From: Dehalococcoidia bacterium
GTDB lineage: Bacteria; Chloroflexota; Dehalococcoidia; GIF9; AB-539-J10
NCBI GenBank assembly: GCA_035530115.1
Contig: DATKVL010000109.1
Span: 1-46,197, forward strand
Length of the DNA: 46,197 bases
Direction: 5' to 3'
Shown here: in pieces, positions 8,017-38,724 of the stretch
Layout: the number at the start of each line of letters is the position of its first letter
How positions within the stretch are numbered: position 1 is the stretch's first letter
Made by a program: the position numbers and the translations under genes
Notes under the pieces: generated by a model
What the model saw: only the letters and a program-made list of their open reading frames with translations
The model's database searches: none
What the model was told of the DNA's origin: nothing

Positions 8017-8045
8017 TTGCTATGTGGATTTAATCAACACAGGAA
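8017..8045 (-). promoter_or_regulatory. 29-bp quasi-palindromic motif, copy M1
   Basis: Minus strand reads ttcctgtgttGATTAAATCcacatagcaa. It overlaps the thyX stop and the SD follows 3 nt later. Confidence 0.8.
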
Positions 8046-8885
8046 ATCATTCCAAGGCATCATGTTCATAATCCGCACCATGTCAGGATGGGCAGATGGA
8101 TGTGTTCTCAACTTCTTGATGTGCGCCCACTCAGCGGCATCGGCAGTGATGATGATCTCGGTTTTGAGGGAGTTCGGCAGCACAGCCCGAGCCTGTTGGG
8201 GGGATAGTCCACCATAAAGCATTGCCTTGTACAGCTCCTCAGATCGCCCACAGGCATTTGCAAACTTCTGCTGGTTGCCAGGACTCCACTCCTCAAACCC
8301 AGCAGGCTCAATGAACTCCATGTCCTTGCCGCCGTAGTTGACATAGCGGGTGGACTCCTGAGCGAAACTGCAAGGCCGGTGCCGGACAAGTTCGTGGCTG
8401 ACTCCCCGGTCGCAGATGAACTTGGCCGAGTAGCGGTGGAGGGCTTTGGGGATTTCGTTGTGGGGGCAGACTTGCCAGTCAGTTTTCCCATCAACGACAT
8501 TCAGACCAAACAACTCTCCGTATACCCCTCGGAACAATAACATTCCCTTTGCAGCTAGGTATGGAGTTTGTACCCACGCGGTTAAGCTCCCACCGATATA
8601 GCCGTAGTCTTCATCATTAAACACGTTCAAGTATTTGTCGGCAGACTGTATCCGTTCGGAGGCCCCAGTACCTAGCGGGATGCGCACCACAAAATTACTG
8701 TGCTCCACCATGGCCAGATGCCTAGCCTTAATCAAGCGCTTGACAAACCCCTCGGCACTGTCGGCAGTGATCTTGTCCTCAGACTTGTAGCAAGTCCTCC
8801 CGGCCTTCTCAATGAAAGCCAGTGCCCCAGCATAGTCTGTCGGTACGGCGCCAAAAAACTCTACAGATGGTTTGATAATCTTCAT
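8034..8885 (-). CDS. thyX: FAD-dependent thymidylate synthase ThyX
   Basis: ThyX signature LVRHRPCSFAQESTRY. AAGGAGA SD before the MKIIKP start at 8885. Markedly GC-richer than its neighbours. Confidence 0.9.
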   Translation of the reverse strand: MKIIKPSVEFFGAVPTDYAGALAFIEKAGRTCYKSEDKITADSAEGFVKRLIKARHLAMVEHSNFVVRIPLGTGASERIQSADKYLNVFNDEDYGYIGGSLTAWVQTPYLAAKGMLLFRGVYGELFGLNVVDGKTDWQVCPHNEIPKALHRYSAKFICDRGVSHELVRHRPCSFAQESTRYVNYGGKDMEFIEPAGFEEWSPGNQQKFANACGRSEELYKAMLYGGLSPQQARAVLPNSLKTEIIITADAAEWAHIKKLRTHPSAHPDMVRIMNMMPWNDFLC

Positions 8886-8886
8886 C

Positions 8887-8991
8887 TCAATTCTCCTTAT
8901 AATCACAAGTTGCACAATACCCACACTTAGGGCATCGTGACATTGAGTGTACATGGCCACATCTAGGGCAGGTGTAAGTTATACTATTCAT
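8887..8991 (-). CDS. Zinc-ribbon miniprotein (34 aa), not in the ORF track
   Basis: My translation is MNSITYTCPRCGHVHSMSRCPKCGYCATCDYKEN. GGAG SD 6 nt upstream. The stop lies 1 nt before the thyX ATG. Confidence 0.5.
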   Translation of the reverse strand: MNSITYTCPRCGHVHSMSRCPKCGYCATCDYKEN

Positions 8992-9190
8992 CTTTGGCTC
9001 CATAGAAATATTGGCAGTACTGAGGATTCCAAGTCCAGTAGCCTACTACCAGTTTCTCTTTCTCAACCTGTTCAAGTCTTGACTGTTCAAGAATATCGAG
9101 TCTCTTGTCTTGTTCTACATGAGAGATTGTCATAAGAATTAAAATTATGAGAATGGTTAAAGCATAGAATCCATCTTCTAGAATCTTCAT
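8984..9190 (-). CDS. Small membrane protein (68 aa, N-terminal TM)
   Basis: Hydrophobic segment FYALTILIILILMTI. AAGGAG SD upstream. Confidence 0.6.
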   Translation of the reverse strand: MKILEDGFYALTILIILILMTISHVEQDKRLDILEQSRLEQVEKEKLVVGYWTWNPQYCQYFYGAKDE

Positions 9191-9193
9191 ATC

Positions 9194-9784
9194 TTACTCC
9201 TTCACTAATCTATCCGCAGCAATAGCGGCATACCCCTGGATGTCGATGTAGTTGTCACGCTTAGACTGTTGGCCTGAACATCGAGCGAGCTTGAATAGCA
9301 TCATCATGTGGGCTACGTCGAGTGCAGTTAGTTTCTTTAAATCCATATTACCCTCAGAAAAATAAGCGTTCCAATACTGAGCAATTAATGAGAAGGAATC
9401 CTCAGGATTTCCATAAGAATCCTGACGCTCACCATTGATGATAGAGTGGGCTTCGTTGAGAGAGTCTCCTAGTTTCTTTTTAATAATCTTTTTTATAGGA
9501 TATTCAGGAAGAGTAGTTGCATCAATTTCTATAACCTTACCAGGCCTTATTGCATTCTTCAGACTCTCTACATCTTCTGAAGTTAAAAAGGATGTACTTT
9601 CAATGGGCATCTCAAAGATAGTATCATCTTTAAATTTAACTGCATAGATTGGAAGTTTTGTAAGATCTACTAAGTCTTTAATATGTGTTGTAATATCATT
9701 AGTATTTAGGTATCCAAAAGGCCAAGGCTCCCAGAATCCGCTTTCTGTAGTTGTGTAATGTGTAGGCTTTTGCATAGCATCCAT
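9194..9784 (-). CDS. MazG-fold/DUF6378-like nucleotide pyrophosphohydrolase-domain protein
   Basis: The C-terminal pattern NGERQDSYGNPEDSF..IAQYWNAY...LTALDVAHMMMLFKLAR..D..GYAA is typical of the phage all-alpha NTP-PPase-like domain. Confidence 0.45.
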   Translation of the reverse strand: MDAMQKPTHYTTTESGFWEPWPFGYLNTNDITTHIKDLVDLTKLPIYAVKFKDDTIFEMPIESTSFLTSEDVESLKNAIRPGKVIEIDATTLPEYPIKKIIKKKLGDSLNEAHSIINGERQDSYGNPEDSFSLIAQYWNAYFSEGNMDLKKLTALDVAHMMMLFKLARCSGQQSKRDNYIDIQGYAAIAADRLVKE

Positions 9785-10383
9785 TAGAGTATCCCCCTCT
9801 TAGCAAGTTCAAAGTAACAACGTTTAGTTGCGAGTACATCAGCTAGAGCATCATGAGCACCAGAGAATTCTTCATTAAATAAGATTCGATGAAGTTCTTC
9901 AAGCTTTGGAAACTTACAACCCTTCCTACCGGACGGGAAAGGTAGGGCGCAAAACTGAATGGTACTCTTCATGGTGCATTTGTAAGGGAGTTCATTGATC
10001 TCATCAAGAATGAGAGTAGGTTCATCTCCATGGGTTTGAGTGAGAGAATGTGCCAAGATTTGAATCAACTTATAGTCAAAGTCAAAGTTATGACAGACAA
10101 AGAACTCAGCATCTTGGGACATAGAGTGGAATTTAGTGAGAGCTTCCATAGGATGGATACCTTCAGAGTTTGCCTTCTCACTGGAGATTCCATGTGCAGC
10201 TAGAGCCATAGGATGGATGGGTTTAGAACCTATCTTTACCAGAGTGGCATACTCTTCAATTACTTCTCCCTTATCATCAGTGAGGACTGCTCCAAGTTGG
10301 AGAAGAGCTGGTTGATTAGGGTGATTGAAGGGAAGCTTTCCATTAGGTAGGCCGGTTGTTTCAGTATCGAAGAAGAGTATCAT
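9784..10383 (-). CDS. DnaQ-like (DEDDh) 3'-5' exonuclease
   Basis: Motifs FFDTETTG, HNFDFDYK and GAHDALADV. Confidence 0.8.
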   Translation of the reverse strand: MILFFDTETTGLPNGKLPFNHPNQPALLQLGAVLTDDKGEVIEEYATLVKIGSKPIHPMALAAHGISSEKANSEGIHPMEALTKFHSMSQDAEFFVCHNFDFDYKLIQILAHSLTQTHGDEPTLILDEINELPYKCTMKSTIQFCALPFPSGRKGCKFPKLEELHRILFNEEFSGAHDALADVLATKRCYFELAKRGIL

Positions 10384-11711
10384 TCTGTCGCTCCTAACAT
10401 TTCTTTAAGTTGAAGAATGTAACCATCTTTGAATTGTTGAGTTAAGTCTGTACCTATCATGTTGATAGAGTTGTTATGCCCAACTATAAGACCCACTCCA
10501 CTTCCTAAGAAAGGAATAAACCCATTAGTTCCAGGCTTAGCGAATGTGGTATATACATCTTGCATCAACTCAATGGGACGCTGAGTTGGATGATACTTCT
10601 TGGTATGGGGCACTGGATTGTGCTGGAAGATATTGGAGCGTCCTGGTCTCTGTAACTTAGCCTGCCCCTTACGAGCATAAAAGAACATCTCATAAGCATT
10701 ACCTAGAAAGGTTTCGGGCTGAGCAGTTTGACCATTAGGCTTGGCCCAAATCCCAGGGATTAGATTCATCTTAAATCCCACACCCTGCATCAGAGATGCA
10801 ATCTCCTGAAACCAAGGATCAGCAGCGAACCAACACACTAGCCATGACCCCTCACGGAGTACTCGATAGGATTCTTGGAATACTTTAGACATAAAGGAAG
10901 CATATTCCATCTTGTCTATCTCGTTGTATCCCATACACTCGTTATCTTTCTTAACCTTCTGTAGGTCGATTGCATACGGAGGGTCAATCTCAATGAAGTC
11001 TAGTGTGTTGTTAGGAATCTTCTTAAAGGTCTCAAGACAATCTCCAATGATGTAGGAAGAAGAGAGTCTCTTGAATACTTTATCATTGGCCCCGGCACTC
11101 TTGGTATATGCGGAAGCTTGGGCTGAATTGTTTAGAGTTTTGGTTACATTCTTAAGGCGCTTAAAAGCATCAGCCTTATTCTTACACTTGTCTAGTTGGA
11201 GTTCAGGAAATCTTTCGATGGCCTCGGCTAGTTGAAGATCCTTAGCCACGGTTGAGGGATCTTTCTTCACTAACTTAGCGGTGTCTGCCTGGCTCCAGCC
11301 AGGCGCATCAGGACTTCTAGTTATCTTAGGGCCATGAATTTCAATCTGGAGATTGTTGATCTGTCTCATGAGAGCAATCTCTTCTGCGTACTCCATACTC
11401 TTTCGATCAAAGTTCTCAGCCAACTCAATGGAACGTAAGTCTAGTTCGGAGATAGGTTGGTCGTAAATCCGGACAGGGATAGAAGTCCAGCCCATAGCAG
11501 TTAGGGCCGCCATCCTTCGACCCCCAGCAAGTAGGATATAAGGGAGATCAGTCTCTCTTCCCACCTTAACCTTGTCGGCTACGCCTACAGCGACTGGAGT
11601 GATTAGGCCATTCTTCTTGATTGAGAACATGAGTTGCTCAATGTTTCCGTAATCTTTACGGAAGCGTTCTCCCAGTTCTATGGAAGTTATAGGAATTTCC
11701 GGAGTATCCAT
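10380..11711 (-). CDS. ParB-like nuclease domain fused to a beta-class DNA methyltransferase
   Basis: N-terminal ParB box LLAGGRRMAA. IDPPY (motif IV) precedes FLGSGVG (motif I). The ATG at 11711 overlaps the upstream stop (TAATG). Confidence 0.8.
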   Translation of the reverse strand: MDTPEIPITSIELGERFRKDYGNIEQLMFSIKKNGLITPVAVGVADKVKVGRETDLPYILLAGGRRMAALTAMGWTSIPVRIYDQPISELDLRSIELAENFDRKSMEYAEEIALMRQINNLQIEIHGPKITRSPDAPGWSQADTAKLVKKDPSTVAKDLQLAEAIERFPELQLDKCKNKADAFKRLKNVTKTLNNSAQASAYTKSAGANDKVFKRLSSSYIIGDCLETFKKIPNNTLDFIEIDPPYAIDLQKVKKDNECMGYNEIDKMEYASFMSKVFQESYRVLREGSWLVCWFAADPWFQEIASLMQGVGFKMNLIPGIWAKPNGQTAQPETFLGNAYEMFFYARKGQAKLQRPGRSNIFQHNPVPHTKKYHPTQRPIELMQDVYTTFAKPGTNGFIPFLGSGVGLIVGHNNSINMIGTDLTQQFKDGYILQLKEMLGATE

Positions 11712-11890
11712 TAGCACCCCTCTCTTGCACTGAGGAAACTATCAATAAGTTCGACTTCATCCTTAGTAGTTTCACTGTATTGCTGATCAGATTCAGGATC
11801 ATTAGACTCAATGCAGAGAACTGTATCCTCCACTCCCATTATAAAATCAAGGAACTCTTTAAGGAATTCTTTCTTTTCTTCTGGTGTCAT
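11711..11890 (-). CDS. Acidic miniprotein (59 aa), not in the ORF track
   Basis: My translation is MTPEEKKEFLKEFLDFIMGVEDTVLCIESNDPESDQQYSETTKDEVELIDSFLSAREGC. ATGA and TAATG coupling at the two ends. Confidence 0.55.
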   Translation of the reverse strand: MTPEEKKEFLKEFLDFIMGVEDTVLCIESNDPESDQQYSETTKDEVELIDSFLSAREGC

Positions 11891-12138
11891 TTCTTAACTC
11901 CTTTCATGAGGGATGCCGCTAAGGCGGCCTTTGCTTCAGTGGTCATACCATTAGCTAGGGCAAATAAATCTTGTTGCTTTGGAGCTTTCTTGCTAGGTGC
12001 ACGAGAGACCTTAGCCGGTGCAGATTTACGAGCAGCAGGTCGAGTACGACGAGTGGCTCTGATCTTGTGGATCTTAACCATAAGTTCAGGCCGACTCATA
12101 TCTGATATGGATATTCCTAAGGAATCAATCGTGGCCAT
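11887..12138 (-). CDS. Basic hypothetical protein (83 aa)
   Basis: Lys/Arg/Ala-rich centre (RATRRTRPAARKSAPAKVSRAPSKKAPK). Co-directional, overlapping neighbours. Confidence 0.6.
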   Translation of the reverse strand: MATIDSLGISISDMSRPELMVKIHKIRATRRTRPAARKSAPAKVSRAPSKKAPKQQDLFALANGMTTEAKAALAASLMKGVKK

Positions 12139-12436
12139 TCCTAAGTTCCTTTAGTTTATTCTCAAAGAATTCTATCTGACTGTTACGAGATCGGGACAGG
12201 CCACAAGTTACTACTTGGGTAATTCCGATGTGGTTTGATACGATGGCTCCTATAGCGGGAAGACCTCCCTTGTCGTAGAGATCTAAGACTCCCTGCACAA
12301 GAGCTTGAAATAGTGGTTTCTGCATACCATGAGGTAGGATCTGCAGAAGTTTTTGGTGCTGTTCGGGAGTGAGTTCAGCTGCTAGACGTGGACGATAATC
12401 TCCACCTGCTGAGCTACTCTTTTGATCCGTGCTCAC
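12125..12436 (-). CDS. Hypothetical protein (103 aa)
   Basis: ORF in a packed co-directional block. No motif recognised. Confidence 0.55.
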   Translation of the reverse strand: MSTDQKSSSAGGDYRPRLAAELTPEQHQKLLQILPHGMQKPLFQALVQGVLDLYDKGGLPAIGAIVSNHIGITQVVTCGLSRSRNSQIEFFENKLKELRNGHD

Positions 12437-12626: not shown

Positions 12627-12655
12627 GATTAGTTAAGGGGGATTCTATCCCCTCC

Positions 12656-12684
12656 TTGCTATGTGGATTTAATCAATGTAGCAA
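12656..12684 (-). promoter_or_regulatory. 29-bp quasi-palindromic motif, copy M2
   Basis: Minus strand reads ttgctacattGATTAAATCcacatagcaa, followed immediately by GGAGG. Confidence 0.8.
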
Positions 12685-16192: not shown

Positions 16193-16221
16193 TTCCTATG
16201 TTGATTTAATCATGATAGCAA
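16193..16221 (-). promoter_or_regulatory. 29-bp quasi-palindromic motif, copy M3
   Basis: Minus strand reads ttgctatcatGATTAAATCaacataggaa, 55 nt upstream of the ATG at 16138. Confidence 0.75.
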
Positions 16222-18850: not shown

Positions 18851-19062
18851 GATTTATCCTCCTTAAACGCAAAAGCTTTTCTTCCCACAGCTTGATAGAA
18901 ATCGGCCATAAGCTCAGTTATTTTCTCAGCGGCGGCTTTCAACTCTTCATCATGTGACACGGCTTCATGGTTGGCTACGTTATCACTGAAAAAATCAACA
19001 GCAAGACTTGACCTGTCCAGAGCTTCATGCCAGTAAAGCTCACTTTGTTTATATTCACTCAT
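18847..19062 (-). CDS. Hypothetical protein (71 aa)
   Basis: ORF track. Overlapping start and stop with both neighbours. Confidence 0.6.
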   Translation of the reverse strand: MSEYKQSELYWHEALDRSSLAVDFFSDNVANHEAVSHDEELKAAAEKITELMADFYQAVGRKAFAFKEDKS

Positions 19063-19292
19063 AGTTTATCCTCATACAGTTTCGTAATGTCTATCTGTAC
19101 TGTTCCGATATATTGCTCTATTATTCTTTCTGTCCAAGCCTTGCCGCAAACACTACACACAAGGTCGATATCTAGTTGGTTCTTGCAGGACGGGCAATGT
19201 AGGTGCCCACAAATATAGGTTTTCATCTTCCCAGTCTCCAGGCTTTCTTCCAATAAGTTGAGAGTGGATTCCTGTATGGATTTAATCAACAT
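19059..19292 (-). CDS. Zinc-ribbon protein (77 aa; alternative start at 19226 gives 55 aa)
   Basis: CGHLHCPSC...CSVCGK. The ATG at 19292 lies inside motif M4 with GGGGAG 5 nt upstream. The internal ATG at 19226 has a GGAGA SD. Confidence 0.6.
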   Translation of the reverse strand: MLIKSIQESTLNLLEESLETGKMKTYICGHLHCPSCKNQLDIDLVCSVCGKAWTERIIEQYIGTVQIDITKLYEDKL

Positions 19293-19297
19293 AGCAA
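19269..19297 (-). promoter_or_regulatory. 29-bp quasi-palindromic motif, copy M4
   Basis: Minus strand reads ttgctatgttGATTAAATCcatacaggaa. It contains a possible start codon. Confidence 0.75.
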
Positions 19298-19303: not shown

Positions 19304-19813
19304 CTATTCTTTAGCCTGCTCAGGAATCATCCCAAGAGATTTCTTGAACTCCTCAGTTCTTTCATTAGATTCAGCCACTCTCTCTTGGAGTTCCTCACTC
19401 AGTCGGTTCTCCAGATTAGCCAGAGCCATCTGATGGGTAGGTTTACTTACTTTAGTCTTAGGAGTAGTAAGGGCGGCTGAAGGCTGGAGGGATGTGGTCA
19501 AAGAGTCAAGAGACATACCTTCGGCAATCATAGCAGTGGCCATATTCCGAGGGTTTATCTTCTGAACCTTGAGGCTCATTCTCTCCAACACCATCATGGC
19601 CTCTTCTTGGGTCTGCGGGAAGTCAGCTTTACCTGAGAGTGTGAGGAGTTCAGCGAAACTCTCCATACTTAGTCGGATAAGTTCACTAATGGAGGAGGGA
19701 GTCTCACCGACTGAGGCCCAATAAAGAGCGAGGGTCGCCAGGTAACGAGCATCCACTCGACTGGTGAGGATGAGGGTTGCAGGACGGTTCTTTACTTCGG
19801 ATAGTTTACTCAT
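19304..19813 (-). CDS. Putative ribbon-helix-helix DNA-binding protein (169 aa)
   Basis: The N-terminal pattern TLILTSRVDARYLATLALYWASVGETPSSISELIRL fits beta-strand, helix, G-x-T/S, helix. AGAGGA SD before MSKLSE. Confidence 0.4.
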   Translation of the reverse strand: MSKLSEVKNRPATLILTSRVDARYLATLALYWASVGETPSSISELIRLSMESFAELLTLSGKADFPQTQEEAMMVLERMSLKVQKINPRNMATAMIAEGMSLDSLTTSLQPSAALTTPKTKVSKPTHQMALANLENRLSEELQERVAESNERTEEFKKSLGMIPEQAKE

Positions 19814-23027: not shown

Positions 23028-23068
23028 GAATATTTCCTCCCAGTTATTGTTGATCTAAGGGCAAATCC

Positions 23069-23110
23069 ATTACCCCATTCATACCATTACACCATACACC
23101 ACATTACACC
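23069..23110 (-). repeat. Tandem array of five 8-9-bp units (GGTGTAAT-like) overlapping a promoter
   Basis: Minus strand reads GGTGTAAT GTGGTGTAT GGTGTAAT GGTATGAAT GGGGTAAT. Confidence 0.7.
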
Positions 23111-23119
23111 AGTTGTCAA
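23091..23119 (-). promoter_or_regulatory. sigma70-type promoter (TTGACA-N17-TATGGT)
   Basis: On the minus strand TTGACA is at 23119-23114 and TATGGT at 23096-23091. Confidence 0.5.
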
Positions 23120-23156
23120 TATCTAACCAATTTTAATTTGAGTAGTGGAGATGGTT

Positions 23157-23185
23157 ATGCTATGATGATTTAATCCACATAGCAT
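23157..23185 (-). promoter_or_regulatory. 29-bp quasi-palindromic motif, copy M5
   Basis: Minus strand reads atgctatgtgGATTAAATCatcatagcat, 37 nt upstream of the -35 element at 23119. Confidence 0.75.
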
Positions 23186-23261
23186 TCCAACTTCTCCTAG
23201 TCAGGCTAATAGATGAGAAAGTCTGACTGGAGAGGTCAGCATGATTCCTTGCGGAATCCCA

Positions 23262-23393
23262 TTAGTTCCATACATTAAGGACACGAACATTAGTAGCAAT
23301 CACCACTAATGCCCATTCAGAAGTCCGGCCACTCCGAATCCACCACCCACAGAATCTCAACGAGTAGGTACTCCACCCCAGTAGTCCATCCAT
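23262..23393 (-). CDS. Trp-rich miniprotein (43 aa), not in the ORF track
   Basis: My translation is MDGLLGWSTYSLRFCGWWIRSGRTSEWALVVIATNVRVLNVWN. Strong GGAGGAGG SD 7 nt upstream. Confidence 0.45.
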   Translation of the reverse strand: MDGLLGWSTYSLRFCGWWIRSGRTSEWALVVIATNVRVLNVWN

Positions 23394-23727
23394 ATCTCTA
23401 CCTCCTCCAGTATATAGTTCTACTGACTATTGGGACGATAGTCCCGAATGCACCAAATGGAATGAGCGTCAAGAGTCTCATAAACCCAATGAATCCACCC
23501 CATACACACACCATTCAATCAAAATTTTGTAATGGAGAGAGTTGATATTCAATCTATATATAATCCTTCTTAGTTATATAATATTTTTTGGTACCACCTT
23601 AACTCTAAGGCATTTTCCCGTTACGCCATTACCCAGTTACTGCGTTACAATTCCATTTAAATTTGTGTGTGCATGGGGTGCGTTTAATCCATTCTTTCGG
23701 CTTTTTCAATTCAACCAATGCACCCCA

Positions 23728-23963: not shown

Positions 23964-24455
23964 TTAATATTCTTCTGCGTCCCCAGGATCGACAAAGATC
24001 GGATCGCCATCCTCGTCCAACTCTGGAGTGTTGTCCACTTCCTCCTGCTTTACTTCGTTGCCACCTGCTTCGAGAAACTTACTCCAGTCGTTCCTGATCT
24101 GCCCCTGCCATCCCCCTCGTACATTCCACAAGAAAGCCCTAACCTCCTCCGGTGACTTCCCGGCAAGGTATGCCCGAATGTCGTCCTCAGTAATCGGGCG
24201 GGTACGATTGCGGCCGCCCTCGAAGAGAGGGACTCCGAATGTTACAATCTTCGGGAGTTTCCCACTGAGGAACTTATCCCAGTTGTTCCTGATCTGCCCC
24301 TGCCATATGACAATCTGATTCGCAATGGCATGACGCTGAATGATCGAGGGATCAACCCCGTCAAATGAACATTCAAACTCTACTTCCTTGAAATTCTTCG
24401 CGGCCTTCTGCTCCGCATCCATTGCCACTTTAAACTTCACAGTTGTTGTGCTCAT
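23964..24455 (-). CDS. First early protein (163 aa) with an internal duplication and acidic C-terminal tail
   Basis: WQGQIRNNWDKFL and WQGQIRNDWSKFL repeats. C-terminus DEDGDPIFVDPGDAEEY. AAGGAGA SD. Lies downstream of the consensus early promoter. Confidence 0.75.
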   Translation of the reverse strand: MSTTTVKFKVAMDAEQKAAKNFKEVEFECSFDGVDPSIIQRHAIANQIVIWQGQIRNNWDKFLSGKLPKIVTFGVPLFEGGRNRTRPITEDDIRAYLAGKSPEEVRAFLWNVRGGWQGQIRNDWSKFLEAGGNEVKQEEVDNTPELDEDGDPIFVDPGDAEEY

Positions 24456-24666: not shown

Positions 24667-24817
24667 ATTAGGCGTCCAAAACCCGCATGGTCCCCCCATC
24701 GGGGGTTGGGGGTTGGCTGTACCCCATAGATCCTTGTATGTAAGTTGTGTCGTAAGTTTGGTATTGGTACCAATTGGTGATTAATCCATCCTCTTAGCAC
24801 TCTATCCTTAGCACTTT

Positions 24818-24846
24818 GTGCTATGTGGATTTAATCCATACAGCAC
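24818..24846 (-). promoter_or_regulatory. 29-bp quasi-palindromic motif, copy M6, between the divergent promoters
   Basis: Minus strand reads gtgctgtatgGATTAAATCcacatagcac. Flanked by two TTAGCAC repeats (24794-24800 and 24808-24814). Confidence 0.75.
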
Positions 24847-24853: not shown

Positions 24854-24869
24854 GATCACTGAGGTGATC
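24854..24869. promoter_or_regulatory. Perfect palindrome GATCAC-tgag-GTGATC, a candidate operator
   Basis: Read directly from the sequence. Lies between M6 and P_R. Confidence 0.4.
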
Positions 24870-24925: not shown

Positions 24926-24954
24926 TTGATTTATTCCTATGAGCATGGTAAAAT
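24926..24954 (+). promoter_or_regulatory. Rightward promoter P_R (TTGATT-N17-TAAAAT)
   Basis: TTGATT at 24926-24931 and TAAAAT at 24949-24954. GGAGG SD and the ATG at 24978 follow. Confidence 0.6.
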
Positions 24955-24977: not shown

Positions 24978-25592
24978 ATGTCTAGTGTTATCACAAATAC
25001 TGTCATCAATGCTGCTGGGCAGGAGGTAGTGTACTCTTATCCAGGGGATAGGTATCTACAGCCTGATCGTAAGGATGCCCGTAGGATTGAGAATAAAACT
25101 GCGCCTGGTGAAGTTGCTAAGAAGAAGGGATGGCAAGTAGCTGAGATGTGGGATAGGCATCATGAGATTGCTAGGAGGATTATCCTCGGGCAGAATAACC
25201 AAGAGATTGGTGAAGCTCTTAATGTAACTGCTCAACAGGTTTCCAATGTTAGGAACTCTCCGGTGGTGCAGGATAAGATCACCATCATGAGGGCGGCTCG
25301 TGATGCTGGGACTATCGACCTGGCGAAGGATATTGCTGACCTAGCTCCTATCGCTCTTCAAAGAGTGAGGGAAGCTCTGGAGACTGGTCAAGTTCTTGGC
25401 CGTGAGCTGAGCGGGTCTTCCATTATGAAGGAAGCGAACAATCTGATGGATCGTGAGATTGGGAAACCTACTCAGAGGATTGACACTAGAAATGTCCATG
25501 GGCATTTTACGTTGGATGATATAGAAAGGATTAAAGAGAGAGCTAGAGAACTAGCTGGATTTTCAGGTCAGATGGCTATTGAACCAGGATGA
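24978..25592 (+). CDS. HTH DNA-binding protein (possible small terminase subunit or late regulator)
   Basis: Sigma-r4/LuxR-like HTH NQEIGEALNVTAQQVSNVRN. GGAGG SD before MSSVITN. The track start at 24939 lacks an SD. Confidence 0.55.
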   Translation: MSSVITNTVINAAGQEVVYSYPGDRYLQPDRKDARRIENKTAPGEVAKKKGWQVAEMWDRHHEIARRIILGQNNQEIGEALNVTAQQVSNVRNSPVVQDKITIMRAARDAGTIDLAKDIADLAPIALQRVREALETGQVLGRELSGSSIMKEANNLMDREIGKPTQRIDTRNVHGHFTLDDIERIKERARELAGFSGQMAIEPG

Positions 25593-28499: not shown

Positions 28500-28528
28500 T
28501 TGCTACGTTGATTAAATCATTATAGCAA
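28500..28528 (+). promoter_or_regulatory. 29-bp quasi-palindromic motif, copy M7
   Basis: ttgctacgttGATTAAATCattatagcaa, lying 2 nt after the TerL stop and 12 nt before the portal ATG. Confidence 0.8.
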
Positions 28529-33726: not shown

Positions 33727-35043
33727 ATGGTGAATGAGATGGCATTTCTTGGTATGCGTGGTACTGGTGATTGGGTTACTGATCAGCGTCCGAAAAATTG
33801 GCGGGAGGCGATTCTCTATCGCTATCCCAATGGCTCCGCCCCTCTTACTGCAATCTTGAGTAAAATGACAAGTGAGAAAACTACTGATCCTGAGTTCAAC
33901 TGGTGGACTAAATCTCTGGCCACTCAGCGGGCAACGGTGACTGGGGTCTACACTGACTCTGGCCTTTCTGTAGCTTATGTAAGTGGGGCTCTTGCTAATG
34001 ATCAACTCTATGTGAAGATGAGTTCTGATGATATTAGTCACTTCCGTACTGGTCATATTGCACTTCTTCGGGATGCAAGTGATCTTACAGTTGATGTAGT
34101 GGCTAAGGTTATTGGCCGTGTTTCTAGTGGGGAAAACTCTTACATCCAGGTAGTACTGCTTGAGGCTGATGATAACTCTACTGCTGGTGATCTCAGTAAT
34201 TGTGATGCAGCTTTGATCATCGGTAATGCTAATGCTGAGGGCGCTGCTATGCCTGATGCGATTAGTTATGGCCCAGCTAAGTGGTACAACTTCACTCAAA
34301 TCTTTAGGACCCCTCTTGAGATGACTCGTACTGCTATGCAGACCCGTCTTCGGACTGGTGAGCATTATAAGGGAGCTAAGAGGGAAGCTCTGGAATTGCA
34401 CTCCATTGAGATGGAGAAAGCTTTCTTGTTTGGTGTACCTTCTGAGCGTACTGGTGATAATGGTAAGCCTGAACGTACTACTCTGGGTATCATTCCTGCA
34501 ATCAAGGGTGGGTATACTGGAAGTGGCGGTGATGCCGGCACGGTCAATAACTTTGCAGCCAATACTGATTTCTCCGGGCAGACTTGGTTGCAGGGCGGTG
34601 AGGAGTGGTTGGATACTCAGTTGGAAGTTATCTTCAGGAAGGGAAGTTCTGAGAAGTTGGCATTCGCTGGATCGGGCGCAATTCTTGGTATTAACTCCCT
34701 GATTAAGGCCGGAGGTAATTTCGATTACTCTGCGGCCACGATGGACTATGGTATCAAAGTAACCAAGTGGGTAACTGCTTTCGGTACTATCAACATCATG
34801 ACCCATCCACTCTTCTCTCATGAGGTCACCACCAGGAATGCAATGGTGATCTTGGAGCCGAAGGACATTAAGTATCGCTTCATTCAGGATACTATGTACA
34901 AAGCCGATGATCGTCTGCAGAAGGGTGGTTGGACTTCTCGTGATGGCATCAAGGAAGAGTATCTCACTGAGTGTGGTCTTGAGTACCATCACCCTGATGG
35001 TTGGGGTTATCTGTATGGTTTCAATACTGCTAACGCAGTCTAA
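33727..35043 (+). CDS. Major capsid protein
   Basis: 438 aa, last gene of the head module and followed by a strong hairpin. N-terminal MAFLGMRGTGDW...DPEFNWW is capsid-like. Confidence 0.7.
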   Translation: MVNEMAFLGMRGTGDWVTDQRPKNWREAILYRYPNGSAPLTAILSKMTSEKTTDPEFNWWTKSLATQRATVTGVYTDSGLSVAYVSGALANDQLYVKMSSDDISHFRTGHIALLRDASDLTVDVVAKVIGRVSSGENSYIQVVLLEADDNSTAGDLSNCDAALIIGNANAEGAAMPDAISYGPAKWYNFTQIFRTPLEMTRTAMQTRLRTGEHYKGAKREALELHSIEMEKAFLFGVPSERTGDNGKPERTTLGIIPAIKGGYTGSGGDAGTVNNFAANTDFSGQTWLQGGEEWLDTQLEVIFRKGSSEKLAFAGSGAILGINSLIKAGGNFDYSAATMDYGIKVTKWVTAFGTINIMTHPLFSHEVTTRNAMVILEPKDIKYRFIQDTMYKADDRLQKGGWTSRDGIKEEYLTECGLEYHHPDGWGYLYGFNTANAV

Positions 35044-35058
35044 TATTTAACATGAGTG

Positions 35059-35082
35059 CCGGGGGGATGAGAGTCCCCTCGG
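35059..35082 (+). terminator. Post-capsid hairpin (attenuator or terminator without a U-tract)
   Basis: CCGGGGGGA (35059-35067) pairs with TCCCCTCGG (35074-35082) in a 9-bp stem containing one G-T pair, with loop TGAGAG. Confidence 0.45.
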
Positions 35083-35110
35083 TGCTACGTTGATTAAATC
35101 ATCATAGGGA
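35082..35110 (+). promoter_or_regulatory. 29-bp quasi-palindromic motif, copy M8
   Basis: gtgctacgttGATTAAATCatcataggga. Its 3' end supplies the AGGGA SD for the ATG at 35116. Confidence 0.8.
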
Positions 35111-35115
35111 TAACA

Positions 35116-35358
35116 ATGGAACCTAATAAGAATTTAACTATTGGTGATCTTGAGAAGAAGAGAGGGGAGCTTAACGCTACTATAGCAGAAGCCATTCAGA
35201 AATTTGAGACTGAAACTGGTACTAGGGTTGGATATATAGACACAGTACGTAAGAGAGATCATGAAGAGAAAGGTGGCGGATGTTGTGGTCCTATGCCTTA
35301 TAATGAAGATCGTGGAGATGTAGTAACTGTTAACATCAATATGAATATGGACTTCTGA
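35116..35358 (+). CDS. Hypothetical virion-module protein (80 aa)
   Basis: First gene after M8. Confidence 0.6.
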   Translation: MEPNKNLTIGDLEKKRGELNATIAEAIQKFETETGTRVGYIDTVRKRDHEEKGGGCCGPMPYNEDRGDVVTVNINMNMDF

Positions 35359-35359
35359 A

Positions 35360-36097
35360 ATGAACCTCTTAGAAGTAAGAACTCAGTTTACTAAGATTTC
35401 TGGAAGATATGATCTAGTTGGCACCGCATTTATAGATGCCGGGGCAGACGTATATATAAATGAAGGACAGAGATTTCTAGATCGTAAGTTTGACTACGGG
35501 CCAGCATTAGGGAAATATTATAAAGACTTGACAGCAGGTACTTTTAAAGTCCCTCTTACTGATTGTCGATCAGTCCTGGAAGTATGGGTTCTCAATTCTG
35601 ATAGTAGAACTGAGCTCAAACCTCTAGATGAATATGAACTTAGATCTATATATCAAAGTAATAGTGTATATTCTACACCGTTAACTACCATGACTCAGGA
35701 TAGGCCTTTATACTACTATCCTACAAACTTTAGACGTGTACCAGATACTGGAACTTTTACTGATTCTGCAACTCTTATATCTTATTTAGATACAACTTCA
35801 CCTACTGACTCAACTGTCAATGGGTTAATAATAATCCCACCTCCTGCAACTGATTATGCTATTGAAGTTTCAGGATTGTTTTATAGTCCTAAATTAGTTG
35901 CTGATATTGATACTAACTATTGGACTCTTAATCACCCTAACTTGTTAATCACTGCTGCTTTGCGGCAATTAGATATAATGTACAATAGTGCACGAAACCT
36001 CAGAACCTTTGATGAAGCTATGGCTACTGATCTTAGGGATTTAGAATATGACTTTATAAGCCAAAGTACTACTGATGCAGTTGAATTAGAAGGCTAG
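35360..36097 (+). CDS. Virion protein (245 aa, possible head-tail adaptor)
   Basis: Position directly after the capsid block. Start abuts the upstream stop. Confidence 0.5.
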   Translation: MNLLEVRTQFTKISGRYDLVGTAFIDAGADVYINEGQRFLDRKFDYGPALGKYYKDLTAGTFKVPLTDCRSVLEVWVLNSDSRTELKPLDEYELRSIYQSNSVYSTPLTTMTQDRPLYYYPTNFRRVPDTGTFTDSATLISYLDTTSPTDSTVNGLIIIPPPATDYAIEVSGLFYSPKLVADIDTNYWTLNHPNLLITAALRQLDIMYNSARNLRTFDEAMATDLRDLEYDFISQSTTDAVELEG

Positions 36098-36110
36098 TAT
36101 TGGAAATATT

Positions 36111-36734
36111 ATGGATTGGAAAACTTATAAAAATCCAGGGCCTTTTAAAATAGATAAGACTTTAGCAGGTACTAGGTATAATACTGGTGATGCTATAGTA
36201 GATGTTAATCATCCAGTGTGGAATCTTAAAGATAAAAGTGGAATTCCTATAACTTCTACTCATGATCCTTGTGGATACTGGAATAATGTTTTAGATCTAA
36301 TTGATCCTTTTACAGAAGTTACAAGTAAACCTTATCCAATTGAAGTTTTTGAGGCTACTGAATCCTTAGGTGCTACATTGATTAGTATGAGGTATACTAA
36401 TCAAACATACAATAGTGGATTACCTGAGGGAGTTGAATCATACGGAGCTCCATTAGTTGGAGGAAATCTTACTCAGACATTCTTCTTAGTGTCTTATACT
36501 AGTGGGGCGGCTGAAGGGGTAGAATCTTCAGGAGCTTCTATAATTACTGGTAATCTTGGAGTAGCATTTATACTTAAAGTTTACAGTAATTATCAACCTG
36601 AAGCTACTGAAGCTTATGGGGCAAGTTTAATATCTGGAGATTTAGGAGTAGGTATTACAATAGTAAGTTATAGTATGTTACCTGAGGCTACAGAATCTTT
36701 AGGTTCAACAGTTATAGGAGGAAGTCTTGGATAA
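36111..36734 (+). CDS. Virion protein with five tandem ~29-aa repeats
   Basis: E(A/G)(T/V)E(S/A)xG(A/S)xL(I/V)xGxL repeat units starting from about 36351. Confidence 0.65.
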   Translation: MDWKTYKNPGPFKIDKTLAGTRYNTGDAIVDVNHPVWNLKDKSGIPITSTHDPCGYWNNVLDLIDPFTEVTSKPYPIEVFEATESLGATLISMRYTNQTYNSGLPEGVESYGAPLVGGNLTQTFFLVSYTSGAAEGVESSGASIITGNLGVAFILKVYSNYQPEATEAYGASLISGDLGVGITIVSYSMLPEATESLGSTVIGGSLG

Positions 36735-37644
36735 GCCTATTTTAGAGTTACATACAGAAGTTGAAGGATGGTTTAAGTTTGAGGCTATTAGTGAGGATGG
36801 TACTAAGAGGGTCCTAGCTGACTGGTTCCCTAATTTGATTACAAATCAGGGTTTGAATCAAATGGGGACTCTAAGCACCTGGCTAGATGCTTGCCAGGTA
36901 GGGAGTGGATCTACAGTCCCAGCAGTTAGTGATACCCAGTTAGTTACATTAGTTGCTGGGACTACAGCAGTTCAGAGTACTGTACAGGGTATACAATCTA
37001 CTCCTCCCTATTATGCGTCAAGGACTGTGACTTATAGATTTGCTGCTGGAGTCGCAACTGGAACTCTTTCTGAAGTAGGAGTAGGTATTACTGCAACAGT
37101 AGGTAATCTATATAGTAGGGCTTTAATTCTTGATGGTACAGGAGCCCCTACTACACTTACTATTTTAAGCACTGAAACTCTTGATGTAACTTATCAGTGT
37201 AGATATTATGTACCTACAGTAGATTTAACTGGTAGTATATTACTTAGAACTACTACACATGATTGGACTAGTAGAGCTTGTAGGTGTACTACAACTCTTT
37301 GGTGGTCTAATATTAGGGGGCAGGCTGAGAATGCTAGTATCTCTGGGGCTATTTTTTATGGAGGTCTTACTGCTGCAATAGCTGCTATAGAATCTTATCC
37401 TACGGGCACTGCATATGGCGGAATTTATCCTACATGGGCAACATATATAAATAACTCATTTTACGCTGATGCTACTATTACAGCAGACCTAACTATAGGC
37501 AATAATGCTGATGGTTTAGGGGCATTACAATTATATTTAGGTATCGGAACCTATCAAATAGGATTTGTTCCTAATATTATGAAGACCTCTTCCGATATCC
37601 TAGTCTTGGTAGTTAGACATTCCTGGGGAAGGAAAACTATATAA
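36727..37644 (+). CDS. Tail/virion protein (305 aa, TTG start)
   Basis: AGGAGG SD 5 nt before the TTG at 36727. No in-frame ATG for 45 codons. Confidence 0.6.
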   Translation: MDKPILELHTEVEGWFKFEAISEDGTKRVLADWFPNLITNQGLNQMGTLSTWLDACQVGSGSTVPAVSDTQLVTLVAGTTAVQSTVQGIQSTPPYYASRTVTYRFAAGVATGTLSEVGVGITATVGNLYSRALILDGTGAPTTLTILSTETLDVTYQCRYYVPTVDLTGSILLRTTTHDWTSRACRCTTTLWWSNIRGQAENASISGAIFYGGLTAAIAAIESYPTGTAYGGIYPTWATYINNSFYADATITADLTIGNNADGLGALQLYLGIGTYQIGFVPNIMKTSSDILVLVVRHSWGRKTI

Positions 37645-38228
37645 TGTTACCAGATAATGTAATATCATCTTCTGTAATAGCGGGTAATTTCATCCAAGCT
37701 AAACAGTTTGATGTAAATAATCTACTAGATTATGAAGATGGCGGAATTGCTATAGGAGATAATAGCCAAGGAAGACTCTATCAAATCTGGAGATGCAGGT
37801 TGATAGGAGATGATATTACTGTAGATGTTCCTAATGACCCTAGCATCTTACCTCTAATTATTTATAGCGCTCCTAATATAACAGAGATAAGTTTTACATT
37901 TGATTCTAACTTGAAACCTGCCGTAGCATTTGTACAGGATAGTATTCCTAAGTTACGCTGGTATGATACAAGTATTCCAGCATATTCTGTGATAGATATC
38001 CCTTATGCTAAAACTCCTAGGGTGGCATTAGATGATAAGAGAATTACTCAGGATAGTAACAGAGATATAATCTTAGCATATATAAAGAATAATGGTTTAT
38101 GTTATAGACAGCAAAGAGATAGATTTTTAATTGAGTATATATTAACGGCAGGGTTGTATAAGAGGTTAATAAAGATGGGTATGAGTAGTAAACTCCGGAT
38201 GCAGTTTTCTTTAGAGTTAAATATATAG
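37644..38228 (+). CDS. Tail/virion protein (194 aa)
   Basis: TAATG coupling. Confidence 0.6.
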   Translation: MLPDNVISSSVIAGNFIQAKQFDVNNLLDYEDGGIAIGDNSQGRLYQIWRCRLIGDDITVDVPNDPSILPLIIYSAPNITEISFTFDSNLKPAVAFVQDSIPKLRWYDTSIPAYSVIDIPYAKTPRVALDDKRITQDSNRDIILAYIKNNGLCYRQQRDRFLIEYILTAGLYKRLIKMGMSSKLRMQFSLELNI

Positions 38229-38249
38229 TTAAACAGGAGGAGTTAACCA

Positions 38250-38690
38250 ATGGCTAATCAAGTTCCGAATGCATGGAAGTCTCAATTGTGGTATCCGTAT
38301 CTAGCCTCTACTTTTAAAATGATTCTAATGAGTCCAGGATTTGTATTTAATAAGGATACTCACTATACCTATGCAGATGTGTTGGTTAGTGAACTTCCTA
38401 CTGGAAATGGTTATACTGCTGGAGGTCTCACACTTTCAGGCATTACTCGTACGTTGAATATAGTAGATGATAGAGTGGAGATGACTTGGAATCCTGCACA
38501 GTGGAATGCTACAGGTGGAAGTATTATTACTTCTGGGGCTATCATCTATATGAATGCGGCCGTAGGAACTATCTATGAACGTACTGATATTATTGTAAGT
38601 TATAAGGATGCAGGTGGAACTATCACTGCTACGGATGGTACTCCTATTATTGTTAGCGCAGTTATGGAAACGGTTGAAGATAAGGTATAA
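38250..38690 (+). CDS. Tail/virion protein (146 aa)
   Basis: AGGAGGAG SD upstream. Confidence 0.6.
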   Translation: MANQVPNAWKSQLWYPYLASTFKMILMSPGFVFNKDTHYTYADVLVSELPTGNGYTAGGLTLSGITRTLNIVDDRVEMTWNPAQWNATGGSIITSGAIIYMNAAVGTIYERTDIIVSYKDAGGTITATDGTPIIVSAVMETVEDKV

Positions 38691-38695
38691 TATTA

Positions 38696-38724
38696 TTGCT
38701 GTGTGGATTAAATCCACATAGGGA
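38696..38724 (+). promoter_or_regulatory. 29-bp quasi-palindromic motif, copy M9
   Basis: ttgctgtgtgGATTAAATCcacataggga. Its 3' end runs into the GGGAGGG SD for the ATG at 38735. Confidence 0.8.

Follow-up and report, generated by a model that had tools for sequence, protein, structure and literature searches.

The window, meaning the whole 46,197-nucleotide stretch of DNA analysed, is a complete, circularly permuted podophage genome (46 kb) with an SU10-like structural module, and it carries nine to ten copies, the tenth of them degenerate, of a 29-bp palindromic element (Table 1). On balance, these elements are probably sites on duplex DNA that are read by a co-evolving phage protein. Because relatives keep the junctions while each lineage rewrites the palindrome, the elements are regarded as putative docking sites for one of the small proteins that the phage itself encodes. 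An operator of a phage DNA-binding protein, one hypothesis of an earlier sequence-only reading of the window, fits all the evidence. The sites, their synteny, their concerted change, the independence of their halves and their association with one gene family are direct observations. The phage looks lytic, no integrase being seen in its genome and copies being essentially absent from 185,579 species genomes.

Table 1. Positions in the window of the sites, promoters and genes discussed in the text.
Feature	Coordinates	Strand	Description
M1	8017..8045	-	TTCCTGTGTTGATTAAATCCACATAGCAA; boundary between thymidylate-synthase-like gene and block of small genes, DNA polymerase and primase
M2	12656..12684	-	TTGCTACATTGATTAAATCCACATAGCAA; after 148-aa core gene (p148)
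M3	16193..16221	-	boundary between ligase block and exonuclease block
M4	19269..19297	-	6 nt 3' of candidate binder gene stop
M5	23157..23185	-	among best palindromes, 12/14 pairs
M6	24818..24846	no coding strand defined	spacer between divergent promoters P_L and P_R
M7	28500..28528	+	boundary between large terminase and SU10-like portal genes
M8	35082..35110	+	3' of SU10-like major capsid gene, conserved hairpin (35061-35078)
M9	38696..38724	+	precedes gene at 38735
Tenth copy, degenerate	729..757	-	TTGCTACGTTGATTTTATCCACATAGCGT; within and antisense to giant virion gene (~1558 aa)
P_L	24666-24639	-	TTGACA-16-TGgTATAAT, sigma70-type, 12/12 match
P_R	24926-24954	+	TTGATT-17-TAAAAT with TG; upstream of small-terminase homologue
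Candidate cognate binder, 169 aa	19304..19813	-	unannotated family; gene site-flanked in most lineages
ParB_N-N6/N4-methyltransferase fusion	10380-11717		gene encoded by the phage

All nine copies placed by the sequence-only reading were recovered at the same positions and on the same strands as exact matches to GATTAAATC (nine in the window against 0.76 expected; 0 of 100 shuffles reached nine). Each of these cores sits within a 29-bp dyad, and the positions claimed as invariant, the 9-bp core together with T2, C4, T5, A23, A25 and G26, are the same in all nine. A search with the 29-mer consensus at up to three mismatches returned the nine copies and one extra, missed earlier, where none was expected; under a position-weight matrix the nine reached 39-44 bits and the tenth 31.5, no other place exceeding 8.2. 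When odd 29-bp palindromes are counted at 11 or more pairs out of 14, the window has 13 versus 2.15 in shuffles; seven of the 13 are copies of the motif. Three conserved patches, TGCT, GATTnAATC and AnAG, are centred near positions 3.5, 15 and 25, about one helical turn apart, while positions 7-10 and 20-23 vary freely and no conserved flanks extend beyond the dyad.

The nine copies all lie in gaps or at gene junctions, gaps of at least 25 nt totalling 2039 nt, about 4.4% of the genome (crude gene model; sum of listed lengths). The intergenic bias proposed earlier held in the scan, with the degenerate tenth copy as the coding exception. Spacing is 1.66-6.6 kb inside the listed span from M1 to M9, which corrects the earlier block sizes of 1.6-10.7 kb; the wrap-around gap is ~15.4 kb, or 8.1 and 7.3 kb with the tenth copy counted. 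On the coding strand, the site carries stops in three frames (TGA at 10-12, TAA at 14-16 and TAG at 24-26). M1 contains the stop TGA of the thymidylate-synthase-like gene, and M4 includes, as had been suspected, the ATG of the next ORF, its in-frame TAG being lost. A start codon is found 5-13 nt beyond the site at M1, M7, M8 and M9. Ribosome-binding sites had been claimed at the 3' end of the motif: that of the gene after M8 is indeed the M8 3' arm AGGGA, and GGGAGGG (3' arm plus flank) serves at M9, but the GGAGG that follows M2 belongs to a hairpin some 22 nt away from the ATG and is not usable. The hairpin described before M8 is present and conserved. M7 is unchanged (29/29) in relatives whose identity over the region is 85-87%.

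Related uncultured phages, from 66-88% nucleotide identity down to a protein identity of ~33%, have sites at the same gene junctions, and each lineage has its own 29-bp palindrome with a core uniform within its genome. Lineages nearer the window have the outer arms TTGCTATGT/ACATAGCAA in common and differ in the inner 11 bp, exchanged jointly in every copy: GGATTaAATCC in the window, CCCAAaTTGGG in a Desulfofustis phage, and TACATtATGTA, TAAATaATTTA, GACAAtTTGTC or GACATnATGTC in others. The recurrent junctions are the flanks of the 169-aa gene, the ligase/exonuclease junction (the M3 position, with a site in at least seven lineages), p148 (the M2 position, with a site at or adjoining p148, usually in the p148/p103 gap, in most related lineages), and those beside the small terminase gene and after primase. 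This placement holds in lineages with exonucleases 33-39% identical to that of the window. Over 13 lineages, 51 of 74 sites lie outside ORFs of at least 60 aa, versus 12.7% of random 29-mers. The sites have changed in concert between lineages, with synteny retained.

The best candidate reader on comparative grounds is the 169-aa protein, which had been called RHH-like. An iterated profile search found one member of its family in every related locus spanning the region; the family comprises 656 representative clusters and has no match in Pfam or the PDB. Among the shared proteins, the 169-aa protein has diverged most, with 39-44% identity versus 53-65% for its neighbours. Before an invariant R-x-D lies a hypervariable segment whose sequence goes with site type: ATL[IVT]LTSR occurs with kGATT, ATLALTSR with GACAT, PTLAFTSR with TACAT, PTLSFTSR with GACAA and ATHALSTR with TAAAT, and GDV[ML]VQVW is found in two phages of one site type. 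This link is confounded by phylogeny, since every protein diverges between lineages. In the AlphaFold model, the N-terminal domain (pLDDT 88) consists of an extended segment and then two helices, and the protein ends in a long C-terminal helix. A ribbon-helix-helix fold is suggested, without statistical support: Foldseek gave E-values of at least 2, with DinJ, VapB, ParD and MatP among the weak matches, and hhalign against Arc/Mnt/CopG gave P = 0.38. The 169-aa protein may be the binder of the sites, a tentative assignment that we hold to be close to an even call. Against it, other core proteins (the ParB_N-methyltransferase fusion, p148, p160, p103 and the small terminase) are equally universal in relatives. 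The other candidate named earlier, an 'HTH protein' at 24978-25592, is not supported as the binder, being a homologue of the annotated small terminase subunit in the Desulfofustis phage record.

The sites might instead act on DNA outside transcription, as loading or anchoring sites for organising or marking the genome, which we consider unlikely. They would be either parS-like entry points for the ParB_N-methyltransferase fusion or matS-like sites bridged by a coiled-coil protein, with a role in condensation, replication or packaging. Spacing round the whole circle is fairly even (1.7-8 kb), and intergenic placement could simply follow from the fact that no coding sequence can hold a fixed 29-mer with a stop in each frame. 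The fusion belongs to the core genes of every lineage whose sequence covers the region; such fusions are common in phages and unexplained (PMC12704722), and a DNA-modifying enzyme has been found to require a phage ParB-like protein (PMC13229309). The long C-terminal helix of the 169-aa candidate and the presence of MatP-matS among the weak fold matches point the same way. However, no HTH or other DNA-binding domain was detected in the fusion, as is typical of ParB-like proteins tied to phage DNA modification (PMC13229309), and its divergence is no faster than that of neighbouring proteins. The precise placement at block boundaries and the flanking of one small gene look regulatory.

A phage-specific middle/late promoter class, the other hypothesis of the sequence-only reading, would rely on host RNA polymerase with a phage factor or on an unrecognised phage polymerase, and would take the form TTGCTA-N17-TAGCAA or that of a T7-like contiguous promoter. 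Among sigma70 promoters in the genome, P_L alone stands out; with one consensus promoter per 46 kb and promoter-like sites unenriched elsewhere, internal promoters would be useful, and the sites do head conserved gene blocks. In T7-like phages, promoter specificity regions change along with their polymerase, which offers a parallel. Such a class is nonetheless improbable. No RNA polymerase or sigma family match was found among the phage proteins tested, and the giant ORF across the circular junction matches nothing and has no such signature. A near-perfect dyad without conserved flanks carries almost no directional information and cannot set direction, the -7 T of a -10 element is missing from TAGCAA, and the start codons past M1, M7, M8 and M9 leave no room for an activator-type promoter, the ribosome-binding site overlapping the site. 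The resemblance to T3, SP6 and K11 promoters is confined to the core of the window lineage and is gone in sister lineages, with inner cores CCCAAaTTGGG, TACATtATGTA, GACAAtTTGTC and others. M6, which does lie between divergent sigma70 promoters, is probably not transcribed and would fire into nothing. The hexamers of P_L are kept over diverged spacers in three relatives (L018, L020 and L057), and P_R, with a -35 inside TGATTTATTCC, a sequence a single mismatch away from the site core, is conserved in L020.

The element had been called directional from its central A, present on the coding strand in 9/9 window copies (that of M6 being undefined); this uniformity counts in favour of promoters. 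The base is T in the M8 and M9 orthologues and one further site of relatives, and in the Desulfofustis phage sites it can be any of the four; strict directionality is weakened and not supported. Within the window, the uniform central A is a hint of polarity that a purely symmetric model leaves unexplained.

That the sites are RNA hairpins—processing sites as for RNase III in T7, mRNA stabilisers, attenuators or translational operators—is very unlikely. They lie between genes within long co-transcribed operons, M8 and M9 have ribosome-binding sequence in or adjoining their 3' arms, and palindromy is retained as the core changes between lineages. Folding is clearly better than in shuffles for M5, M6, M7 and M9 (z -2.4 to -4.5), whereas the other five of the nine (M1-M4 and M8) fold no better (z +1.1 to -1.4), and transcription is least likely for M5 and M6, which are the best palindromes. 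Mismatches between the halves were described earlier as non-compensatory, and within lineages no covariation was found: in a set of 28 distinct window-type sites, paired cells make up 80.6% versus 81.8% in shuffles, and deviations from the lineage consensus in 74 pooled sites fall in one half only in 223 cases, are compensatory in 20 and affect both halves with different bases in 21. Coding-strand G-T (7) and A-C (6) mismatches are equally common over the nine copies, the invariant GATTnAATC could form only ~3 base pairs round a triloop, Rfam gave no match, and the sequence itself, beyond pairing, is fixed within each genome. Independent halves, together with five of nine copies without excess folding, argue for duplex DNA read by a symmetric protein and not for a hairpin; the earlier view of a DNA-level element, drawn from this independence and from the position of M6, is upheld.

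A selfish or neutral repeat, whether a mobile REP/MITE-like palindrome or a modular-recombination 'linker' between relatives, would be short, palindromic, intergenic and multi-copy like this element, and the phage has genes for a Sak4-like annealase and an exonuclease, and one relative (L040) has two copies 52 bp apart, but it is highly improbable given syntenic positions across deep divergence with differing sequences, the opposite of recent insertion, a phage without a transposase or HUH gene, blast identity blocks that on informal inspection do not break at sites, and a within-genome homogeneity at orthologous positions that calls for selection by a trans-acting reader.

In the favoured explanation, the reader would be a phage-encoded, symmetric (dimeric or higher), sequence-specific protein evolving together with its sites, which would form a genome-wide operator set at gene-block boundaries. 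The TGCT, GATTnAATC and AnAG patches would be presented on one helix face, and the variable N-terminal strand of the 169-aa early protein may read the lineage-specific inner core. Bound protein could be a roadblock or repressor at block junctions, a best guess that is doubtful and draws on priors about ribbon-helix-helix proteins rather than on the window itself. Awkward for a roadblock are a binder encoded upstream of the replication genes, sites also within the late operon and the lytic look of the phage. At M5 and M6, the protein might act on early promoters, autoregulation included, its own gene being flanked by sites. A minus-strand TTGACA-17-TATGGT lies at 23119-23091, with M5 ~38 bp upstream; M5 and M6 are ~85-200 bp from the nearest predicted start sites (estimated from coordinates), too far for simple operator action. 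The function that we infer lies among roadblock or repression, activation and genome organisation, and occupancy of the sites would modulate host-RNA-polymerase traffic from the central divergent sigma70 promoters down two long arms of the phage genome.

The window contains nine copies of GATTAAATC, where 0.76 would be expected, and the sequence-only reading, which had listed nine copies of a 29-bp palindromic motif (M1-M9), was borne out in coordinates, strands and invariant positions alike. A search with the 29-mer consensus at up to three mismatches returned these nine copies and one extra, degenerate copy (M10), where chance would give none. With a weight matrix built from the nine, the copies score 39-44 bits, the tenth scores 31.5 bits, and everything else in the window scores 8.2 bits or less. 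Each site is a 29-bp dyad in which 10-12 of the 14 pairs are formed; the centre is A+T-rich, and no T tract is present. Read on the coding strand, the consensus contains TGA, TAA and TAG, one per frame, so the element is non-coding by construction in that orientation; the TAG is lost in M4, the copy that overlaps a start codon. According to a crude gene model, gaps of at least 25 nt sum to about 2 kb of the window (listed lengths summed); seven copies lie within such gaps, and M1 and M4 occupy tighter junctions. A terminator scan called none of the sites, which do not show the G+C-rich stem and T run of an intrinsic terminator, and a tRNA scan gave no match. A CRISPR repeat or mimic, as judged against Rfam models, was rejected, because the sites are 1.7-8 kb apart, form no regular array with spacers of about 30-40 bp, and match no Rfam family at threshold, CRISPR-DR models included. 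A 77-aa protein with two CxxC pairs and weak zinc-ribbon matches is the product of the ORF whose start lies in M4; none of the other lineages examined yielded a homologue.

The first 141 nt of the window are identical to 46057-46197, resembling the assembly overlap of a circular genome. When the circle is joined, a single ORF of 1573 codons crosses the junction (from about 44920 to 3399), and the two ends of the window are adjacent in one relative. Thus, the window represents an entire genome of about 46.06 kb that is circularly permuted. Its large ORFs encode DNA polymerase A, primase, portal, large terminase and an unmatched 1558-aa virion protein. The giant ORF, as reconstructed across the junction, contains C-terminal segments rich in Gly and in hydrophobic residues, shows no polymerase signature and no match to PDB sequences or Pfam, and matches in size the 1577-aa gene of Desulfofustis phage LS06-2018-MD01 (OP947158.1). 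About 50 window proteins were scanned with PHROGs and Pfam; no RNA polymerase, sigma factor, HTH/RHH regulator or integrase was detected, and no family match to a classical repressor, parA or a transposase was obtained among the proteins tested. The hexamers of the two divergent sigma70 promoters that flank M6, P_L (leftward) and P_R (rightward), are retained in relatives over diverged spacers, suggesting that both promoters are probably real. Elsewhere, promoter-like and terminator-like matches were no commoner than in shuffles in either arm, and no sigma70 -10 element was found at a fixed distance downstream of the sites.

Features of the window, with coordinates and strands
Feature	Coordinates	Strand	Description
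Minus arm	3.4-24.5 kb	-	Primase, family A DNA polymerase, thymidylate-synthase-like protein, ParB_N-N6/N4 methyltransferase fusion, Sak4-like annealase, PD-(D/E)XK exonuclease, ATP-dependent ligase, many small unknowns
Plus arm		+	Homologue of the small terminase as annotated in the Desulfofustis phage record, amidase, large terminase, SU10-like portal, capsid and adaptor, tail genes, giant protein
P_L	24666-24639	-	Only outstanding sigma70 promoter, TTGACA-16-TGgTATAAT
P_R	24926-24954	+	TTGATT-17-TAAAAT
M10	729-757	-	Tenth, degenerate copy
ParB_N + N6/N4 methyltransferase fusion	10380-11717	-	Core gene of the whole clade
Hairpin just after M2	12637-12655	-	G+C-rich
ORF starting inside M4	19059-19292	-	77-aa protein
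169-aa protein gene	19304-19813	-	Candidate binder of the sites
Stretch from M5 to the 163-aa gene	23028-23727		About 700 nt
GTGCGTTTAATCCAT	23678-23692		Partial site-like sequence
163-aa protein gene	23964-24455	-	First gene downstream of P_L, a perfect sigma70 promoter
40-nt DNA repeats	24072-24111 / 24267-24306		90% identical
TTAGCAC repeats	24794-24814		Two arm-like repeats adjoining M6
GATCACTGAGGTGATC	24854-24869		Second palindrome, 8 nt right of M6
TGATTTATTCC	within 24927-24937		Partial site-like sequence, overlapping the P_R -35 element
Hairpin just before M8	35061-35078	+	G+C-rich

The surroundings of the promoters contain several further elements. Partial site-like sequences, all below the matrix threshold, were noted: TGATTTATTCC, which is one mismatch from the site core; GTGCGTTTAATCCAT; and the TTAGCAC repeats, which are not conserved in the close relative L057. 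The second palindrome, GATCACTGAGGTGATC, differs from the sites, is conserved in the related contig L020 as TATCACTGGGGTGATC, and could be where a further regulator binds in this divergent promoter region. The 163-aa protein has no family match, is conserved only in closer relatives, and is internally duplicated, with WQGQIRNxWxKFL present twice and the 40-nt repeats at the DNA level. Between M5 and this gene lies a stretch with no convincing gene and no Rfam match, containing CCATTACAC-like repeats, an A+T-rich patch and several inverted repeats; the minimum of the cumulative GC skew falls near 22-24 kb, and this stretch could therefore be a replication origin. Away from this region, the hairpin next to M2 is paired through different sequences in relatives (GGGGAT..ATCCCC vs GGGT..ACCC), the hairpin next to M8 is conserved in the related contigs L017 and L024, and neither contains a clear T tract.

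Megablast of the window against GenBank phages gave no match, and protein searches identified as the only GenBank relative the Desulfofustis phage, whose large terminase is 50% and whose exonuclease is 34% identical to that of the window. Scanning IMG/VR for the motif revealed eight contigs that are 66-88% identical to and collinear with the window and carry the same motif in the corresponding places; in these contigs M2 and M7 are 27-29/29 identical, with diverged flanks. The Desulfofustis phage carries nine copies of its own 29-bp palindrome, TTGCTATGTCCCAAATTGGGACATAGCAA, whose length and outer arms are those of the window sites and whose inner 11 bp differ. Other lineages have the arms in common with the window around the cores TACATtATGTA, TAAATaATTTA, GACAAtTTGTC, GACATnATGTC or TAAnnnnnTTA, and at least six inner cores were found with the same arms. 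Distant relatives detected with an exonuclease profile (33-39% identity) contain other 29-bp odd palindromes: CCTATGGTTAAAnTTTAACCATAGG, CTATCACCAAnnATTGGTGATAG, AGTTCGTTTAAnnnTTAAACGATCT, TTACCTCATTGAAAtTTTCAATGAGGTAA and TGTAAAATGTGCnnnnnGCACATTTTACA. One related contig, L040, has two identical palindrome copies 52 bp apart (1047-1075 and 1099-1127), upstream of the early region. Among 74 sites from 13 lineages, 51 lie outside any ORF of at least 60 aa on either strand, compared with 12.7% of random 29-mers. A gene-order map showed that lineages with unrelated site sequences have their sites at shared junctions: one small gene has a site on each side, and other sites occupy the ligase/exonuclease boundary, lie at or adjoin the gene for p148 (usually in the gap between p148 and p103, both small core genes of the clade), lie beside the small terminase gene of the divergent region, or follow the primase gene. 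A mobile palindrome (REP/MITE) was rejected on the basis of these syntenic junctions across deep divergence and the lack of a transposase family match.

A scan of viral contigs with the outer-arm pattern yielded only four loci, because perfect arms are rare, and a metagenome scan yielded four loci; five further contigs were short, adding no more than single sites. The clade was essentially absent from 185,579 species genomes. Product names in OP947158.1 look unreliable for very short ORFs, as in the case of a 63-aa ORF named 'terminase large subunit' (2040-2231), and its replication arm bears the doubtful labels 'tellurite resistance', 'aminoglycoside resistance' and 'tail protein'.

The sites were compared for signs of selection on base pairing. 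In the window-type group (28 distinct sites), no measure of covariation rose above shuffles, the proportion of paired cells being 80.6% vs 81.8% with shuffled partners. Across the 74 sites, departures from the half-site consensus affected one half only in 223 cases, both halves in the same way in 20, and both halves differently in 21. As RNA, M1-M4 and M8 were predicted to fold no more stably than shuffles (z from +1.1 to -1.4); only M5, M6, M9 and, less so, M7 rose above shuffles, M5 and M6 being the copies least likely to be transcribed. On the coding strand, G-T and A-C mismatches were equally common (seven and six, counted from the copy sequences). The lack of covariation, the independence of the halves and the unstable RNA folds indicate that pairing itself is not under selection; each half is held to the same sequence, as recognition of duplex DNA by a symmetric protein would demand. 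The conserved columns fall into three patches (2-5, 11-19, and 23 with 25-26) with centres about 11 bp apart, which would place them on one face of the helix. A hairpin for RNA processing or stability, of the T7 RNase III-site type, was rejected, since compensatory changes were not found and five of the nine copies fold no better than shuffles.

The motif had also been read as directional. The central base is indeed A on the coding strand in all window copies with a defined coding strand, but this is not kept in relatives: it is T in the M8 orthologue of L017, in the M9 orthologue of the related contig L013 and in one more site of the relatives, and on the coding strand of the Desulfofustis phage the central bases are A, A, A, T, T, C, T, G and A. 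A second asymmetry, the change of GCAA in the 3' arm to GGAA or GGGA, is explained by the ribosome-binding site of the closely following gene. With both points considered, the directionality of the site would be a weak bias at most.

Orthologous sites were found to have changed together in every copy of a genome, which calls for a trans-acting factor that has changed in step with them. The best candidate for the predicted reader is the 169-aa protein. Iterated profile searches found one member of its family in every related locus covering the region, including the Desulfofustis phage (862-1191, labelled hypothetical in OP947158.1) and the most distant lineages. In most lineages sites lie on either side of the gene, and in several it directly abuts one; the protein is the most diverged among the shared proteins. 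Its family, comprising 656 clusters at 50% identity, is unannotated. Equally universal in the clade are the ParB_N-methyltransferase fusion and several small proteins. In an AlphaFold model of residues 1-66 (pLDDT 88), an extended segment (residues 10-21) is followed by two helices; in the full model, a helical middle part and a long helix at the C terminus come after these. Between its invariant residues the extended segment is hypervariable, and its sequence sorts with site type, a correlation that is confounded by phylogeny. With the extended segment-helix-helix pattern of its model, the protein looks like the ribbon-helix-helix (RHH) protein guessed earlier, but no significant match was obtained with Foldseek, with PDB profiles, with Pfam (searched member by member) or with hhalign: DinJ, VapB, ParD and MatP were among the weak Foldseek matches, with E values of at least 2, and hhalign against Arc/Mnt/CopG sequences gave P = 0.38. 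As for the fusion, its identity is 34-53% in distinct lineages and 88% in L057. In ParB-parS systems an HTH-bearing ParB binds a 16-bp palindrome, usually together with a ParA partner; such a system is improbable here, because only ParB_N and N6_N4_Mtase domains were detected in the fusion, with no HTH, and no parA was found among the proteins tested.

What remains is a set of about ten predicted protein-binding sites at block boundaries, in a genome whose two long arms are seemingly driven from one central promoter region. Almost all RHH proteins act as repressors, partition adaptors or architectural proteins, and this prior favours, by analogy, a roadblock or repressor role, which would include autoregulation of the site-flanked gene. 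The RHH repressors Arc, Mnt, CopG, MetJ and NikR resemble the present case in that a two-stranded sheet reads symmetric or repeated subsites spaced by about one helical turn; the predicted model of the 169-aa protein has an extended segment, two helices and a C-terminal helix. NikR reads the 28-bp dyad GTATGA-N16-TCATAC, and MatP, by way of its coiled coil, bridges the multiple dispersed palindromes to which it binds. Classical phage RHH repressors, in contrast, act at one operator region, compared with ten sites round the genome here. In RK2 KorB O_B (12 palindromes), the P1 C1 operators and the phiC31 inverted repeats, one regulator serves about 10-20 sites spread across a small replicon and coordinates several operons; these sites are 13-17 bp long and usually at promoters, the replicons are temperate or plasmid-borne, and the protein families (ParB-type HTH, C1 and phiC31 repressor) differ from the candidate here. 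Ranked second is a non-transcriptional organising role, which we consider quite improbable.

A more elaborate reading, speculative and on the whole rather unlikely, treats each site as a two-part 'address' operator, in which a conserved outer handle surrounds a lineage-rewritten core that is putatively read by the hypervariable strand of a new small-protein family. On this view, conflict between co-infecting relatives would have left its footprint in the switching, through immunity-like roadblock exclusion or genome organising and not through ordinary internal regulation, in phages that look strictly lytic. This reading covers a widespread, undescribed clade of uncultured podophages and a protein family without Pfam or PDB match.

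Cluster A stoperators (L5 gp71, Bxb1 gp69) share several features with the window: one short site in many copies on both genome arms, mostly in short intergenic gaps and away from promoters, with a site-dense region near the regulator gene. Their consensus also differs between sub-lineages, tracking the cognate protein (PMC6550527). However, stoperators are 13-14 bp, asymmetric, bound non-cooperatively by a temperate-phage immunity repressor and strictly oriented with transcription, at 20-30 per genome (PMC6550527), whereas the window has 9-10 copies of 29-bp dyads without reliable orientation, and its phage looks lytic, with no recognisable HTH repressor, integrase or parA. Since the clade is essentially absent from species genomes and no lysogeny genes were found, a role in prophage immunity like that of stoperators is doubtful. 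The repeated switching of specificity nevertheless resembles that of immunity systems (PMC6550527). Cluster O mycobacteriophages contain more than 30 17-bp dyad repeats, TGTTCGG-N3-CCGAACA, about one third of them inside genes; the repeats' function is unknown, and the authors infer a dimeric DNA-binding protein with a role other than transcription initiation (PMC4351075). Like the window sites, these are dyads dispersed in a not obviously temperate phage, with central bases that are asymmetric and not meaningfully oriented. The window sites differ in their 29-bp length, almost entirely intergenic location, syntenic junctions and conserved-arm, variable-core design; the description of Cluster O points to no particular candidate protein and reports no rewriting between lineages.

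The proposal that the motif is a phage promoter class is unlikely to hold. T7-like promoters (T3, SP6, K11) are likewise conserved elements, of about 23 bp, at many intergenic positions, with a specificity region that changes with the cognate protein between phages, as is proposed for the sites here, and the window site superficially resembles ATTAA...CAC.ATAG, a likeness that is absent in sister lineages. Yet T7-like promoters are asymmetric, strictly co-oriented, equipped with a defined start base and dependent on a polymerase gene, whereas the sites are dyads without conserved flanks, their orientation is not conserved, and no polymerase-family gene was found. Host regulators were compared by eye, using consensus sequences, and sigma54, DnaA box, IHF, Fur, LexA, CRP, the lambda CII repeat, the P2 Ogr dyad and FNR (TTGAT-N4-ATCAA vs TTGAT-N3-ATCAA here) were all rejected on spacing or variable positions.

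Dispersed operator-like repeats in phages are already known (PMC6550527, PMC4351075). The present case differs from these in its clade of uncultured SU10-like podophages, its 29-bp dyad geometry with conserved arms and a lineage-specific core, its strict junctional synteny and its unannotated candidate family. A literature search found no description of the element or the clade, and in the paper on Desulfofustis phage LS06-2018-MD01 a term search turned up nothing on such repeats. In genomes in which most genes are unannotated, the sites delimit gene blocks, and they offer a simple means of recognising the clade in metagenomes. Should the sites and the 169-aa family prove cognate, the clade would supply a naturally occurring set of protein-DNA pairs that differ in specificity while the 29-bp scaffold stays constant, from which a recognition code could be learnt and orthogonal parts drawn. 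If true, the finding would show how a phage without an RNA-polymerase-family gene, and with apparently one strong promoter region, partitions two 20-kb transcription arms.
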